Assembly: GCA_014728035.1 (NCBI GenBank)
Contig: WJMJ01000046.1
Location: forward strand, 128,001 to 192,000
Direction of reading: 5' to 3'
Origin: Promethearchaeota archaeon
Lineage (GTDB): Archaea; Asgardarchaeota; Thorarchaeia; Thorarchaeales; Thorarchaeaceae
DNA length: 64,000 bases
Below are positions 2,677 to 64,000 of this stretch, piece after piece; the stretch's first letter is position 1, and each line of letters opens with the position of its first letter. The notes beneath the pieces were generated by a model that was not told the origin of the DNA, did not search any database, and worked only from the letters and a program-made list of their open reading frames with translations. A program made the position numbers and the translations under genes.

Positions 2677-2766
2677 CTTGAATATAGTCTATACGGAATT
2701 ATATCCGAATAGATGTTTTGATAAAACCACAACTAATGTATTACGTAGCTTTATCTTGTTCCATTC

Positions 2767-2797
2767 TCCAGTGGAAATGCAAGTGTTCCACTAGAAC
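2767..2797 (+). promoter_or_regulatory. ORB/mini-ORB-like Orc1/Cdc6 binding sites immediately upstream of cdc6
   Basis: TCCAGTGGAAA at 2767-2777 and degenerate TTCCACTAGAA at 2786-2796. Confidence 0.65.
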
Positions 2798-2802
2798 TAC
2801 CC

Positions 2803-4077
2803 TTGCTTTCGAATGGAGCTGAAAAGAAGTTGGAAAAACCATTAGACAAATTATTTGACAAATTTCTTCAAGGGCAAGCTATCTTTAGACAAAGAAACAC
2901 ATTACGACCAACCTACGTTCCAGAAGAATTACCGTATCGAGATGAACAGATGGGAAGGATAGGCTCGATTCTGGGACCTGCTTTGAGAGGAGCTCCTCCT
3001 TCAAACATCCTTTGTTATGGAAAGACGGGTACAGGAAAAACAGTGGTCGCAAAATACGTTCTTCAGTTATTGGTAAGCAAGGCGGAACAAAGTGGAATAA
3101 AACCACCACTAGCAGCTTTTGTAAACTGCAGAATAGTTGGGACTAACTATCGAGTATTGAAAAGGCTTTGCGATCAAATTGGAGCTACAATGCCAGATGG
3201 TTCAGAGGTCCCATTCACAGGACTACCAACTGATGAAATCAGATCAATACTCAAGAAGAAACTTGACAAAGAGCCAAGTATTCTTGTTGTTGTGCTTGAT
3301 GAAGTAGATAGTCTGGTGAAAAGGGATGTCAATCAAGGAAACGATATACTCTACAGTTTAACAAGAATGAATAGTGAGCTGGCAAATAGTAGAATTTCAA
3401 TAATAGGAATTAGTAATGACCTTAAATTTAAAGAGGTCTTAGATCCAAGAGTTCTCAGTACATTAGGAGAAGAAGAAGTAATATTTCCTCCGTACAATGC
3501 AGTTGAACTCAAGGGGATTTTGCAACAGAGAGTCAAGATTGCATTTAATGAAGGTGCAATATCGGATGAGGGTGTGATTAATCTTGTTGGCGCCCTAGCC
3601 GCACAAGAACATGGTGATGCCCGTAGAGCACTAGACCTGCTCAGAACAGCTGGAGAATTAGCAGAACGTAGAGGAGACGAAACAGTCAGTCAAGAACATG
3701 TCAGAGAGGCTCAAAAGGTAATTGAAAGAGATACCATTACGGAAACGGTCAAAACACTTCCGCTACAATCAAAAGCAGTTCTGTTTGCAGTATATGCACT
3801 TGCAAATAAAGGGAAAAGAGACATCTTCACTGGCGAATGCTACAATGTATATACAGAGATTGCCAAAGTTCTGTCAATAGATACATTGACTCAAAGACGT
3901 ATTAGTGATCTTATAAGCGAGCTTGATATGCTGGGCTTGATTAACACTACGGTGATATCAAAGGGGCGATATGGACGAACCAAAAAAATCCGGTTAGCTG
4001 TAAGTAAGCGTCAAATTGGAACAATTCTGAACGAGGACACGCGATTAGGCAAAATCTCAAAAGAACTATTGACCTAG
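2803..4077 (+). CDS. cdc6: Orc1/Cdc6 replication initiator (Orc1-1 type)
   Basis: YVPEELPYR, Walker A GKTGTGKT, VVLDEVD, GDARRALDLLR, C-terminal winged helix with GRYGRT. Confidence 0.97.
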   Translation: MLSNGAEKKLEKPLDKLFDKFLQGQAIFRQRNTLRPTYVPEELPYRDEQMGRIGSILGPALRGAPPSNILCYGKTGTGKTVVAKYVLQLLVSKAEQSGIKPPLAAFVNCRIVGTNYRVLKRLCDQIGATMPDGSEVPFTGLPTDEIRSILKKKLDKEPSILVVVLDEVDSLVKRDVNQGNDILYSLTRMNSELANSRISIIGISNDLKFKEVLDPRVLSTLGEEEVIFPPYNAVELKGILQQRVKIAFNEGAISDEGVINLVGALAAQEHGDARRALDLLRTAGELAERRGDETVSQEHVREAQKVIERDTITETVKTLPLQSKAVLFAVYALANKGKRDIFTGECYNVYTEIAKVLSIDTLTQRRISDLISELDMLGLINTTVISKGRYGRTKKIRLAVSKRQIGTILNEDTRLGKISKELLT

Positions 4078-6802: not shown

Positions 6803-8188
6803 ATGGTAGAAAAACTATTTGGAACTAGTGGAATTAGAGGAAGTATTCAGAGTAAAGTCACAACAGATATGGCACTGAATTTGGGAAGGTCACTTGGTAC
6901 AACTCTGAAAGGTACAGGTATAGTTGGAGTAGGAACAGATGCTCGAACTTCAAAAGATATGTTGAAGAATGCTTTCATTGCTGGAATGCTCTCGACAGGA
7001 GTTAATGTAATCGACCTAGGATTTGCTCCGATGCCCGTTGTTGCAGCTCATAGTACATTCAGTCCAATAAAAACCTCGGTTATAATAACAGCAAGTCATA
7101 ATCCATCCGGAGATAATGGATTCAAGTTTTTCAAAAACGGAAGAGAATACATTAGGAGTGAAGAAAAAAATATTGAACGATGCATATCTATGGAAAAATA
7201 TCATGTCGCGAATTGGACATCGACAGGGACCGTTTCTAAGTATGATATTTATGAAAACTATATGATTCGTGCAAAACATTTCCTAAGTAAGAGAGGTGCG
7301 CAAGGAAGAGGGATGAGAGTATTGGTAGACCTCGCTAATGGAGCAGCTGTGCCATATACCCCTGTTCTTCTGAGAGAATTAGGATTTTCTGTGACTACGA
7401 TTAATGCACATCCTGATGGGCATTTCCCAGGAAGACCTGCTGAACCATCACCAAAAAATCTTGAAGATACAATGCGAATTGCAAGTACCTCGGACTTCTC
7501 TTTAACAGTATGCCACGATGGTGATGGCGACAGGCTTGCAGTAATTGACGAGGCCGGGAACTTCATAGACCAAAACAGAATCATTGCGCTTTTTGCAAGA
7601 GATGAAGTTCGCCGAAGAGATGGTGGGCTTGTTGTGGTGTCAATTGATACATCAAGCGTAATCGATGATGTGATTAAAGCAGAAGGTGGTTCAATAATAC
7701 GGGCACCCTTAGGTTCACTCCAAGAGATTTTCTCAAAGCGGAAAGAAGAGGTTGTATTTTCCTCAGAGCCATGGAAGCCAATTTTTACAGCATTTGGTTG
7801 GTGGATGGATGGTATAGTTGGAGCAGCAAGAATAACTCAGATGGTCCAAGATGAAGGAGAGGAAAGTTGTATACAACTGATGAAATCAATTCCAGAGTAT
7901 CCAATGCTTAGAGAACACATAAAATGTCCAGACAAATGCAAATCAAAATTCATGGATAGCATCAGAATTCTAATAGAGGATCAAGTTACAAACATCGAAC
8001 AAATTATCGATGTCGATGGTGTGAGGGTTGAGAGAAATGATGGCTCTTATGTCCTCATAAGGGTTTCAGGAACGGAACCTAAAGCTAGAGTGTATATTGG
8101 TGCAAAGAAAAGAGAAACTCTAGAGAAGCTTGCAGCACAAGCACGGAAAATAATGGAAACTGCACTCGAACATGCAAAAAAAGAATAG
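6803..8188 (+). CDS. Phosphohexomutase (phosphoglucosamine/phosphomannomutase family)
   Basis: LFGTSGIRG, TASHNP, DGDGDR, RVSGTEP. Confidence 0.92.
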   Translation: MVEKLFGTSGIRGSIQSKVTTDMALNLGRSLGTTLKGTGIVGVGTDARTSKDMLKNAFIAGMLSTGVNVIDLGFAPMPVVAAHSTFSPIKTSVIITASHNPSGDNGFKFFKNGREYIRSEEKNIERCISMEKYHVANWTSTGTVSKYDIYENYMIRAKHFLSKRGAQGRGMRVLVDLANGAAVPYTPVLLRELGFSVTTINAHPDGHFPGRPAEPSPKNLEDTMRIASTSDFSLTVCHDGDGDRLAVIDEAGNFIDQNRIIALFARDEVRRRDGGLVVVSIDTSSVIDDVIKAEGGSIIRAPLGSLQEIFSKRKEEVVFSSEPWKPIFTAFGWWMDGIVGAARITQMVQDEGEESCIQLMKSIPEYPMLREHIKCPDKCKSKFMDSIRILIEDQVTNIEQIIDVDGVRVERNDGSYVLIRVSGTEPKARVYIGAKKRETLEKLAAQARKIMETALEHAKKE

Positions 8189-42278: not shown

Positions 42279-43506
42279 GAGAATTGCCTCCTTCAGTTAG
42301 TAGGTCTTGAATGAATTGTTCCAGTTTGTCTGCGGGAATCTCAGAAAGTCCAATCAATGTTGTTTGCCCTCTTTGACCAGTACTGGATTTCTTTGTATCC
42401 AATATATCGTGAGCTGTTAAATCTTGAACCCATTCCCAAACTTGAGTATGTGCACGTGCTTCTGTTTTATATTCTTCACAAACAGGATGGTACTCATCCT
42501 CAACCTCACCCATTGTTACATAAGCTGCTCGTGCTTCTTTCAGCCGTCTAGCTGTAGCAAGAAGCAATAGCTTATGATGGAAAGGAAGAGTTGTAAAAAC
42601 TTCGTTGATTAGTTCCGGATGGGTATCAGCTTTTGCACGACGAACATAATCAGGAATTACAATGTTGTTTTGTTCATGATCTGCTTGTTTTCCTGCACGC
42701 CATAACAACTCTATTGCATATCTTGCATCACCACGTTCTGCAGCAATATCAGAAATAACATGCACTGTATCATCCAAAACAGTTTTTTTTTCAAACGCCA
42801 TTTCAATTCTATCATATAAAATATCCATTAATTCAGCGGCATTGTATTTCTCAAAACGTAAAATATTCCGTTGTAATGTACTTAACGTGCTAGAGTCAAA
42901 TAATTCATCACTAAGAGGAATGTTTCGTCCAATTCCAATCATTGAAACTCTTTGAGGTGCATTTAACCGATCATCCATTAGACGAGTTAAATCGTATATT
43001 ATATCCACACCTTTGTTCCTGATGAAATAATCCAACTCATCTAGCACAAGTATTAGAAAACGATCTTCCATATCAAGAACTTCAACTATTAATTGAAGTA
43101 TCTCTTCTGGAGAATGACCACGTCTTGGGAATTTTGGTCTAAACTCACGCAAAATCCTAAGAAAAACAAGATACGTACTCTTGTTAACTCTACAATTTAT
43201 GTGAATTTTATGAAGTCGAATATTTCTTCTATCCGCTGCTTGAATCAATTGCTCTGTGAATTTTTTTGTGACTGCAGTTTTGCCAGTTCCAACTGAACCT
43301 TCAATGATGAATTTTTGACTTGTTCTACCAGGTGAAGAAATAAGGCTCTTAAAAGATTGAGCTAAAATCCGCAATTCTTCATCCCGATGATGTAGCCTTT
43401 CAGGAACATAATCAATAGACAGGAAATGCTCTGATTTAAATACACTGTCCTTACCTAATTCATCCTCAACAAAGTCCCGAGTCATCACTCTCGTGAATAT
43501 TGGCAT
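42274..43506 (-). CDS. cdc6: Second Orc1/Cdc6 paralogue
   Basis: DYVPERLHHR, GSVGTGKT, LDELD, GDARYAIELL, GQRGQTT wing. Confidence 0.95.
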   Translation of the reverse strand: MPIFTRVMTRDFVEDELGKDSVFKSEHFLSIDYVPERLHHRDEELRILAQSFKSLISSPGRTSQKFIIEGSVGTGKTAVTKKFTEQLIQAADRRNIRLHKIHINCRVNKSTYLVFLRILREFRPKFPRRGHSPEEILQLIVEVLDMEDRFLILVLDELDYFIRNKGVDIIYDLTRLMDDRLNAPQRVSMIGIGRNIPLSDELFDSSTLSTLQRNILRFEKYNAAELMDILYDRIEMAFEKKTVLDDTVHVISDIAAERGDARYAIELLWRAGKQADHEQNNIVIPDYVRRAKADTHPELINEVFTTLPFHHKLLLLATARRLKEARAAYVTMGEVEDEYHPVCEEYKTEARAHTQVWEWVQDLTAHDILDTKKSSTGQRGQTTLIGLSEIPADKLEQFIQDLLTEGGNSH

Positions 43507-62913: not shown

Positions 62914-62958
62914 CAGAAAACATCAATTCGCACCATTAACAAAGATTCACAAATCAAT

Positions 62959-63376
62959 ATTGTGAATGGCGCCTTATTTGTGAACCATCAAAAATAAAAA
63001 GACCCCATAACCCTCAAAAACTTATTTTCTGTAATTTAAAAGCCGGTTACCATTGTGAACAAAGACACCCCTTTGTTTCCAGTGGAAAAACGGTTAAAGA
63101 GATATGATACAGTGTATAATGTATTCACAAAATACATAATACTGTGAAGACCTAACAGAATGGAGAAAAGCATTATTATTGAAAATAGAGCAATATAAGA
63201 GCCCCATTATAAATATTAATGATTAATATCGCATATTTACTGATAAAAAGATAGAACTAGCCACAACATAGCTATGTACGAATTATCAGGCCAATACCCT
63301 CATACAGCGTATTGACATATTCACACTTATTAGCAAACAAATAGTAAGTCATTGTGAATGAAGAATTATTTGTGAA
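62959..63376 (+). repeat. Direct repeat ATTGTGAATG-N5-TTATTTGTGAA (62959-62984 and 63351-63376) plus scattered TGTGAA/TTCACA half-sites
   Basis: 21 of 21 non-spacer positions identical between the copies; 9 hexamer copies counted in about 430 bp. Confidence 0.85.
63068..63088 (-). promoter_or_regulatory. Origin recognition box (ORB) in an AT-rich intergenic region; candidate oriC
   Basis: Minus strand TTTCCACTGGAAACAAAGGGG: ORB dyad plus G-string. Confidence 0.75.
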
Positions 63377-63394
63377 TAGTGCTAGGTGAACTCT

Positions 63395-64000
63395 GTGACT
63401 GATGAAGGAAAAACAAATTATGTGTATGAATTTACCTATAATTCAGGTCCAGGTCTCAGAGAGATATTTCAATGTAAATATGTGCAACCAGATGAAGCTC
63501 TTAATAGATTTCGCAAAATACTTGCACTTACCGAAAAACCATTCGACTTCAAAATATCAATCTTTGATGAGTCTACAAGGGAAGAATCAAGCTTTCAGGT
63601 AAAAGGAAGTGTAGAAGAAATGTTTCAGAAATTCAAGGTATTTCTTGAAACAAGTACGGGATATGTATTTTCGGTAGTATCTACAGACGAGATGTATCAG
63701 GATATAGAAGTAGAAGAATATGATATAGATACCATGAGTAATTTTGATAAAATGCAAATGATAATCTATGCGTCTTTTAAACATGGAAAATTTTCATCTC
63801 TTGATGTTACAGAGATATATGAAGACACCTTCAAAGAGGACCTTCCAAAAAGTACTGCATCAACATACCTCAAAAGAATGTGGGAAGATGGTAAGGGACA
63901 TCTTGAACGTCACGGTAATCGAACAGGATACACATATCGCTTAAGAACAGAAATGCCTGAAGTTCAAAGAGAGGTAGATCGAGCAGATGAGATACTTGCA
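63395..64000 (+). CDS. Winged-helix protein, 3' truncated by the window end (not in the ORF track)
   Basis: GTG start after AGGTGA RBS; 202 open codons; C-terminal FSSLDVTEIYEDTFKEDLPKSTASTYLKRMWEDG...RHGNRTGYTYRL wHTH pattern. Confidence 0.8.
   Translation, partial: MTDEGKTNYVYEFTYNSGPGLREIFQCKYVQPDEALNRFRKILALTEKPFDFKISIFDESTREESSFQVKGSVEEMFQKFKVFLETSTGYVFSVVSTDEMYQDIEVEEYDIDTMSNFDKMQMIIYASFKHGKFSSLDVTEIYEDTFKEDLPKSTASTYLKRMWEDGKGHLERHGNRTGYTYRLRTEMPEVQREVDRADEILA

Follow-up and report, generated by a model that had tools for sequence, protein, structure and literature searches.

We describe here a 472-bp intergenic gap (positions 62914-63385, 31.8% GC) near the end of a 64,000-nucleotide stretch of a Thorarchaeia genome, referred to below as the window (C9:128001-192000, from an assembly of 4.33 Mb in 173 contigs), together with the winged helix-turn-helix (wHTH) gene that follows it, P0001. 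We propose that the gap serves as a control module ahead of a wHTH gene that is conserved and linked to the origin, and that the two together form the left flank of the chromosomal replication origin, oriC, where they would be bound by the initiator Orc1 and autoregulated by the wHTH protein. We give this reading a probability of about 60%. It builds on the sequence architecture of the locus and its conservation, on phylum-wide linkage to Orc1-1 and to origin recognition boxes (ORBs), and on a skew switch at a core of two inverted ORBs beyond the window. An earlier reading of the letters (the original prediction) had placed a cdc6-unlinked origin in the gap. This holds in so far as ~60 kb separate orc1-1 from the origin to which the locus belongs; the gap itself, however, is probably not where the origin fires, as its single ORB has no inverted partner and no AT-rich element is conserved in it.

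An ORB and a box array ahead of the wHTH gene

The ORB of the gap, termed ORB-a, reads CCCCTTTGTTTCCAGTGGAA on the plus strand at 63068-63087, corresponding to TTCCACTGGAAACAAAGGGG on the minus strand, and has both the dyad core and the G-string of archaeal Orc1/Cdc6-type origins. Its 13-mer core, TTCCASTGGAAAC, occurs only once in the whole genome, and just one further genomic site, C25:206510, combines an exact ORB core with a G-string at the correct spacing. The gap also contains nine TGTGAA/TTCACA hexamers (boxes), with 0.35 expected from the genome rate (Poisson P = 1.7e-10 per counting window, with ~1.5e-6 such windows expected genome-wide). When TGTGAAT/ATTCACA density was scanned across the 4.33-Mb genome, as had been suggested for checking the prediction, the gap was the densest cluster, with six copies as compared to three in the runner-up. 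The ORB and the nine hexamers, as well as the bipartite repeat ATTGTGAATG-N5-TTATTTGTGAA (copies at 62959-62984 and 63351-63376) and the inverted pair ATTCACAA-N7-TTGTGAAT (62945-62967), are all present as originally described. The boxes, being 7-8 bp long, in both orientations and irregularly spaced, are not arranged like those of an iteron-type replicon, and P0001 gave no match to a Rep family in Pfam or NCBIfam. Complete coordinates are given in Table 1.

P0001 starts with a GTG at 63386, with an alternative GTG at 63395. A TATA-like CTTATT(T/A) is found ~60 bp ahead of the start codon, with a box on either side. This would be the classic position for an archaeal repressor, the promoter being assigned from position alone. 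The arrangement, in which boxes bracket both the putative TATA element and the start site, fits the autoregulation that had been predicted.

Alignments of the upstream region, of 12 and then of 21 orthologous loci from many genera, present a pattern of short, near-invariant blocks with unconstrained spacers of constant length between them. The first block is TTCACA ... TGTGAATGGCGCC-N4-TTGTGAAT, followed by TGTGAAT-N5-ACACCCCTtcGTTTCCAnTGGAA (a box and then the ORB), by ATTCACAA ... GTGAAT, after which a variable segment comes, and finally by ATTCACATACTCACACTTATTTG and, ~32 bp ahead of the start codon, TTGTGAAT, both of which are kept across genera. All 22 family loci have a recognisable ORB, ~300-350 bp ahead of the orthologous gene, with CCCC-N4-TTTCCAnTGGA matched exactly in 20 of these and with 1-2 mismatches in the other two. 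With its full length including the G-string, its unique core and this conservation, ORB-a can be considered a genuine ORB. The juxtaposition TGTGAAT-N5-7-(A)CCCC is family-wide and is also seen at loci L024 and L031. As for the duplication of the bipartite repeat, to which the original prediction drew attention, the first copy is kept as TGTGAATGGCGCC-N4-TTGTGAAT in the 21 aligned loci, with occasional single-base changes, whereas the second half of the promoter-proximal copy (TTATTTGTGAA, 63366-63376) is private to this genome and is not found in a relative of the same genus.

The variable segment is 162 bp long in 12 of 14 loci, belonging to different genera, and 154 bp long in the remaining two. 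Its mean GC content is 37%, as compared to 42% for the loci, and reaches 47% in other genera; judged by this composition, it is not a conserved AT-rich unwinding element. A length that is fixed when the sequence is not points to a constraint on geometry, for instance from looping or wrapping. At the RNA level, the gap gave no Rfam match at gathering or permissive thresholds (none with E < 1). The RNAalifold energy was -10.4 kcal/mol (339 columns; covariation term, -0.28), i.e. there was no covariation support, and the predicted pairs join invariant boxes only, with a double change in one of 22 pairs. As both covariation and Rfam matches are lacking, the conserved blocks should be considered protein-binding sites rather than RNA.

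The inverted ORB pair and the strand-composition switch

An inverted ORB pair around an AT-rich element, which the gap does not contain, is found at C9:195,151-195,317, 4.1 kb from ORB-a and 3.2 kb past the window end. Within locus L001 (C9:188001-208000), the first ORB of this core, ACACCCCCTCATTTCCACTAGAA (7151-7173), has the orientation of ORB-a, and the second, TTCTACAGGAAATAAAGGGG (7298-7317), is inverted, the spacer between them being 124 bp with 23% GC. Both ORBs carry 1-2 mismatches in this genome, which is why the exact ORB search missed the core, and both are close to consensus in relatives. Across the family, the core spacers measure 121-129 bp, with a mean GC content of 31% as compared to 43% for the loci. 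By its sequence, the core is thus a canonical ORB-DUE-ORB, where DUE stands for the DNA-unwinding element. TGTGAA boxes are not conserved at the core. The core sits between an open reading frame (ORF) of 99 aa and IorA, with HypF following, and these neighbours are as in other families. Two saccharopine-dehydrogenase genes (L001 4060-6713, minus strand) are inserted so as to separate the wHTH gene from the core.

On C9, the cumulative A-T skew peaks at 195,569, ~250 bp from the inverted core ORB. In a genome of the same genus (G001:C2), the cumulative A-T curve reaches its maximum beside the ORB pair, at 376,746, and when 200 kb on each side were divided into 10-kb bins, all 20 bins to the left of 378 kb were positive and 19 of the 20 to the right were negative. 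In another genus (G016:C40), the A-T maximum, at 133,859, lies on the ORB pair, and the GC skew flips there as well. In three genomes from two genera, the A-T skew thus peaks within ~0.3-1.5 kb of the ORB pair. The skew analysis called for by the original prediction accordingly gave a switch at the locus, with the peak located on the core ORB pair, ~4 kb from the gap. There is no skew switch at Orc1-1, which in G001 is found at 442 kb. It should be noted that the usable signal, and a clean one for the replichores, is the A-T skew, whose sign is constant along most large contigs of this genome, the GC skew on C9 alone being noisy and not decisive.

Skew alone is ambiguous as to whether a locus is an origin or a terminus. 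An origin is favored here by the ORBs, by the linkage to Orc1-1 elsewhere and by a modest excess of outward-pointing genes: 61% of genes point away from the locus in the present genome (G000), 57% in G001, and 55% and 54% in two further sets. In the closed 1.42-Mb genome of another family (G026; skew stretch C1:423001-823000, L143-L162), the cumulative GC-skew maximum is at 626,157 and the orc1/wHTH/ORB-pair locus is at 622-625.5 kb. According to the bacterial convention, a cumulative GC-skew maximum is read as the terminus. The published Odinarchaeum origin was placed at the cumulative GC-skew minimum (PMC9246712). The skew polarity of Asgard archaea may be inverted.

Several further elements were observed around the core. 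In 23 of 24 family genomes (L034-L061), and also in at least three other Asgard families, the ORB pair is directly adjoined by the 99-aa ORF (L001 6815-7114, C9:194815-195114), whose N-terminus contains LYVYDV and which has no Pfam match; it is a second conserved origin-adjacent gene. A palindrome, (T)TAGAACACGTGTTCTAA, is present on both sides of the core and also ~30 bp upstream of the 99-aa ORF. Its three positions (L001 7112-7129, 7331-7346 and 7370-7388, within C9:195112-195388) are the same family-wide (L033-L056), and its exact 12-mer, GAACACGTGTTC, has only 11 genomic occurrences; a further regulator probably acts on this palindrome at the origin. The core spacers contain AAAATGGAGATAA ... 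TATTTATAC in some genera and the reverse complement, TTATCTCCATTTT, in others (L033-L056). From these motifs, it looks as if the whole ORB-DUE-ORB unit was inverted relative to the flanking genes in some genera.

The second full ORB of the genome, TTCCACTGGAAGTGAAGGGG (C25:206300-206535, L121), is found beside ~75 bp of AT-rich DNA and has the same TTAGAACACGTGTTCTAA palindrome and an GACGTTTC tandem as neighbors. As no A-T skew switch occurs at C25:206510, with C25 being negative throughout, this ORB was not accepted as a major origin. Instead, Orc1 may use it for regulation, or it could be an origin that is minor or dormant.

Linkage to Orc1 and the nature of the wHTH protein

No orc1/cdc6 gene is adjacent to the gap: Orc1-1 is 60.6 kb away and its paralogue, Orc1-2, upstream of which no ORB was seen, is ~20 kb away. 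In other Asgard families, a wHTH homologue of 142-179 aa is found beside an Orc1/Cdc6 gene, in divergent or tandem orientation. There, one ORB lies in the gap that the two genes share, upstream of the homologue and oriented as ORB-a is, an inverted ORB pair with 180-200 bp between its members lies on the far side, and a conserved ORF of ~97 aa, IorA and HypF are found alongside. Orc1-1 is 51-62% identical to the Orc1 that neighbors the homologue, as compared to ~30% for Orc1-2, so that this neighbor is the orthologue of Orc1-1. A profile search for the wHTH family in 151 Asgard genomes found the gene in 116. Outside the Thorarchaeia family studied here, the wHTH gene and Orc1-1 are less than 1 kb apart in 35 genomes, 1-6.2 kb apart in 19 and on different contigs in 20. 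Within the family, the 14 pairs that share a contig are 55-153 kb apart, most of them by ~60 kb. By comparison with the other families, separation from cdc6 is thus a derived trait of this family. The ORB, boxes and wHTH gene are kept together in 22 family loci and recur in other Asgard families, synteny being one of the checks suggested with the original prediction. The gene is a phylum-wide neighbor of Orc1-1 and not a lineage-specific initiator gene, 'dedicated' as the prediction had put it.

The boxes, too, recur. At ten further loci, from nine other families (f2, f6, f8, f12, f13, f15, f21, f22 and f23), TGTGAA/TTCACA ranks first among the hexamers ahead of the homologue. In other families, GGCGC(C/T) is often near TGTGAA, with an adjacent ORB too, and the arrangement of (T)GGCGC(C/T) plus TGTGAA recurs. 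Family f7 instead presents GTTAACA, in 9-14 copies, and the recognition helix of its wHTH protein reads SV(V/I)STYL as compared to ST(A/I/V)STYL. The joint change of box and recognition helix suggests that it is the wHTH protein that would read the boxes. In some families (L027 2400-2678, L142 2006-2284), a TrmB-like HTH gene of ~92 aa was also observed after the wHTH gene and before the ORB pair; no such gene was seen between the wHTH gene and the core in the present genome.

The promoter of Orc1-1 (2740-2800; L102-L120) presents GTAATACGTAG, TTTATC, two ORB cores without G-strings (mini-ORBs) and a GGAG ribosome-binding site, an arrangement kept in 20 family genomes. The mini-ORBs are, from their position, a probable autoregulation site for autorepression of the initiator, and their presence in this promoter implies that Orc1-dependent transcriptional control is already in use in the family. 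The gap upstream of Orc1-1 was considered as an origin and rejected, as it spans only ~130 bp and holds mini-ORBs without G-strings at the start site.

P0001 has a single-copy orthologue in 21 of 24 family genomes, with 61-89% identity; the single-contig family genome G041 gave no match to the gene. Sequence searches against Pfam, NCBIfam and the PDB revealed no significant family. Weak BlaI/CopY-type signals were below threshold in Pfam and NCBIfam: Penicillinase_R scored 13 bits against P0001, with a cut-off of 22.6, so P0001 is not a PadR/BlaI-like regulator by the Pfam measure. Weak Penicillinase_R matches were also obtained for 16 of 44 relatives, the best at 2.8e-6. All database relatives are listed as 'hypothetical protein' from Candidatus Thorarchaeota. 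Among the nearest protein-language-model neighbors there are hypothetical proteins of 166-167 aa labelled Nitrososphaerota and Bathyarchaeota, and the family may extend beyond Asgard.

In the AlphaFold2 model of P0001 (pLDDT, the predicted local distance difference test score, of 85), residues 12-91 form two beta-beta-alpha units, which a linker connects to the wHTH at 119-186, and a long helix ends the chain, so the product predicted for the adjacent gene indeed has a winged helix. The C-terminal ~100 residues of the model superpose on the PadR-like TA0346 (3elk_B) with a VIA-align Z of 9.0 over 97 residues; for 7wjp_A from Listeria, Z was 9.0 with 96 residues aligned. The winged helices of Cdc6/ORC and of many other wHTH proteins are tied just under these PadR-like matches, and Foldseek returned only generic wHTH rows from the PDB (E ~1e-3 to 1e-2). 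In the model, the protein thus has the wHTH and C-terminal dimerisation helix of PadR/BlaI-like regulators. No Cdt1 family was found for P0001 or its relatives in the Pfam or NCBIfam results, and the match to the fold of the Cdt1 C-terminal domain is one among many tied generic wHTH rows. With one wHTH, the protein does not show the tandem winged helices and Cdt1 similarity of WhiP/Cdt1-type proteins. A complex prediction for Orc1-1 and the wHTH protein scored 0.00, which is evidence neither for nor against an interaction.

Table 1 Features of the window discussed in the text, with positions counted from its first nucleotide
Feature	Position	Strand	Remarks
Distal box block: ATTCACAA-N7-TTGTGAAT, GGCGCC, then TTGTGAAC	62945..62985	+	
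TTGTGAAC box	63053..63060	+	6 bp off the G-string side of ORB-a
ORB-a, full ORB with G-string	63065..63087	-	minus-strand sequence TTCCACTGGAAACAAAGGGGTGT
Inverted box pair ATTCACAA-N12-TGTGAAG	63123..63149	.	
Variable segment between box blocks	63150..63318	.	fixed length
Putative promoter/operator of the wHTH gene: ATTCACAC, TATA-like CTTATTA, TTGTGAAT ~27 bp downstream	63319..63359	+	
Extra TTATTTGTGAA half-repeat	63366..63376	+	private to this genome; missing in the same-genus orthologous region
wHTH gene P0001	63386..64000, running on to C9:192045	+	219 aa
Two mini-ORBs without G-strings	2766..2797	.	between TATA-like TTTATC and the Orc1-1 start
Orc1-1 (Orc1/Cdc6 initiator)	2803..4077	+	TIGR02928, 422 bits; 60.6 kb from the wHTH gene
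Orc1-2 paralogue, matched region	42331..43443	-	TIGR02928, 302 bits; Cdc6_C, 72.7 bits

Proposed working of the locus, known systems and alternatives

In the reading that we prefer, Orc1-1, encoded 60 kb away, would bind the single ORB-a, and the TGTGAA/TTCACA boxes would be bound by a wHTH protein of PadR/BlaI-like type, acting as a dimer and most likely encoded by the adjacent gene. By occupying the boxes that bracket its own TATA-like element and start site, the wHTH protein would regulate its own gene. Unwinding and helicase loading would take place 4.1 kb downstream, at the inverted ORBs with their AT-rich spacer. ORB-a, for its part, would act through Orc1 in regulation or titration and be coupled to the origin.

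Among systems studied experimentally, Sulfolobus oriC1 (with an accessory motif bound by UBP) and oriC3/WhiP come nearest, and the locus differs from both in defined ways. As in oriC1 of Sulfolobus and other archaea (PMC12141716), ORBs with a dyad core and G-string form an inverted pair around an AT-rich spacer, with a third ORB aside, and there is an additional non-ORB motif for a DNA-binding protein that is not an initiator, namely the ucm motif bound by UBP in oriC1 and, as proposed, the boxes here. However, the third ORB is here 4.1 kb from the core, with one or more genes between, the origin is 60 kb from orc1-1, and TGTGAA clusters at one locus and not in the spacer. The ucm motif, by contrast, is internal to the DUE, and more than 300 genomic sites are known for UBP (PMC12141716). 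With Sulfolobus oriC3/WhiP (PMC3607249, PMC4010727), the locus shares a winged-helix gene beside an origin that has no adjacent orc1/cdc6, and repeats near or within that gene. Yet WhiP is Cdt1-related, with tandem winged helices (PMC3607249), and its origin contains neither ORBs nor mini-ORBs (PMC4010727), while the present protein combines one PadR/BlaI-like wHTH with a beta-beta-alpha domain, at a locus with three ORBs. The suggestion that it is a WhiP-like initiator is, therefore, not borne out. In Haloarcula hispanica oriC2, an ORB sequence is likewise found apart from the core, across a gene, and titration of the initiator was proposed. That region, however, is ORB-rich, lies downstream of a cdc6 gene and was tested genetically (PMC3936714), whereas the present ORB is a single one, known from sequence and embedded in an array of another motif ahead of a wHTH gene. 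PadR and BlaI-MecI-CopY repressors share with the present system the wHTH with a long C-terminal helix and inverted-repeat operators over their own promoter. The differences are matches under the Pfam thresholds, an extra N-terminal beta-beta-alpha domain that is duplicated in Thorarchaeia, about nine boxes over 430 bp, and a gene fixed in linkage to oriC and Orc1-1.

Some observations weigh against the preferred reading and should be considered. Genome G002 has a local GC change but lacks a clear A-T switch, and the gene orientation bias is not present in G016. The polarity (T>A and C>=G on the leading strand) departs from the bacterial convention. The correlation between recognition helix and box was seen in one lineage only, f12 being mixed, and it could also be Orc1-2, or a further factor, that binds the boxes in place of P0001. 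The fixed 162-bp spacing hints at a higher-order nucleoprotein structure, beyond simple operator logic. In addition, ORB-a is ~300 bp from the putative promoter, such that a purely transcriptional role is not obvious, and, as a third ORB in analogy to Sulfolobus oriC1, it may take part in the working of the origin. The role of ORB-a may lie either in replication, be it as a third ORB, by looping or by initiator titration as at Haloarcula oriC2 (PMC3936714), or in transcription only.

We also considered, more tentatively, that the wHTH protein is more than a repressor, namely a phylum-wide Asgard origin factor. Bound to the box array beside Orc1 at ORB-a, it would then build a nucleoprotein complex of fixed geometry that licenses or restrains the loading of Orc1-1/MCM at the ORB-DUE-ORB. 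Such a complex is consistent with the constant spacing. Rather unlikely, in our view, is a purely transcriptional role, in which ORB-a would be an Orc1-1 operator for the gene of an ordinary autoregulated repressor that plays no part in replication, and the position at oriC would reflect inherited gene order. The TATA-like element bracketed by boxes, an origin core that lacks boxes and a fold known from common repressors all fit this possibility, as do the mini-ORBs in Orc1-1's own promoter, which point to Orc1 as a transcriptional regulator in the family. Nonetheless, linkage of the gene, ORB and Orc1 is held in at least 14 Asgard families, and when origin and orc1-1 split in Thorarchaeia, the wHTH gene stayed with the origin. 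Moreover, ORB-a retains its G-string at ~300 bp from the promoter, and the protein is single-copy and strongly conserved, with identities of up to 89% in the family.

Less probable again is that the gap itself fires and is unwound in its AT-rich part, the ORB being occupied by Orc1 and the iteron-like boxes by a WhiP-like wHTH initiator. A full, conserved ORB directly adjoins a box, the box cluster has no equal in the genome, the 162-bp spacing is fixed and the skew switch is within ~4 kb, a distance at which skew cannot separate gap from core. Yet the ORB of the gap is a single one, the segment between the blocks is not AT-rich in other genera, and the conserved, canonical ORB-DUE-ORB, 4.1 kb away, is within 0.3 kb of the skew peak in this genome. 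The single wHTH without Cdt1 or WhiP similarity, and the lack of ORBs at the WhiP origin (PMC4010727), also argue against such firing. Finally, a structured non-coding RNA, a mobile-element remnant or chance repeats, which a long, conserved intergenic region with inverted repeats might bring to mind, can be set aside as highly improbable, the first being rejected by the Rfam and RNAalifold results, the second by phylum-wide single-copy synteny and the third by the Poisson figure and the genome-wide ranking of clusters.

Neither the architecture of Asgard origins nor this protein family was described in the literature that could be searched, and the one closed-genome Asgard study that we found chose its origin from skew alone (PMC9246712). 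For Asgard archaea, the closest prokaryotic relatives of eukaryotes, the locus offers a sequence-defined, phylum-conserved oriC architecture, comprising an outlying ORB, a conserved wHTH gene with its box array and an ORB-DUE-ORB core. The bacterial GC-skew convention may misplace Asgard origins. For reconstitution in vitro, the locus points to defined DNA fragments and to three proteins, namely Orc1-1, Orc1-2 and the wHTH protein. In Thorarchaeia, where the origin parted from orc1-1 and kept the wHTH gene, the locus presents a natural experiment on what an origin requires in cis.

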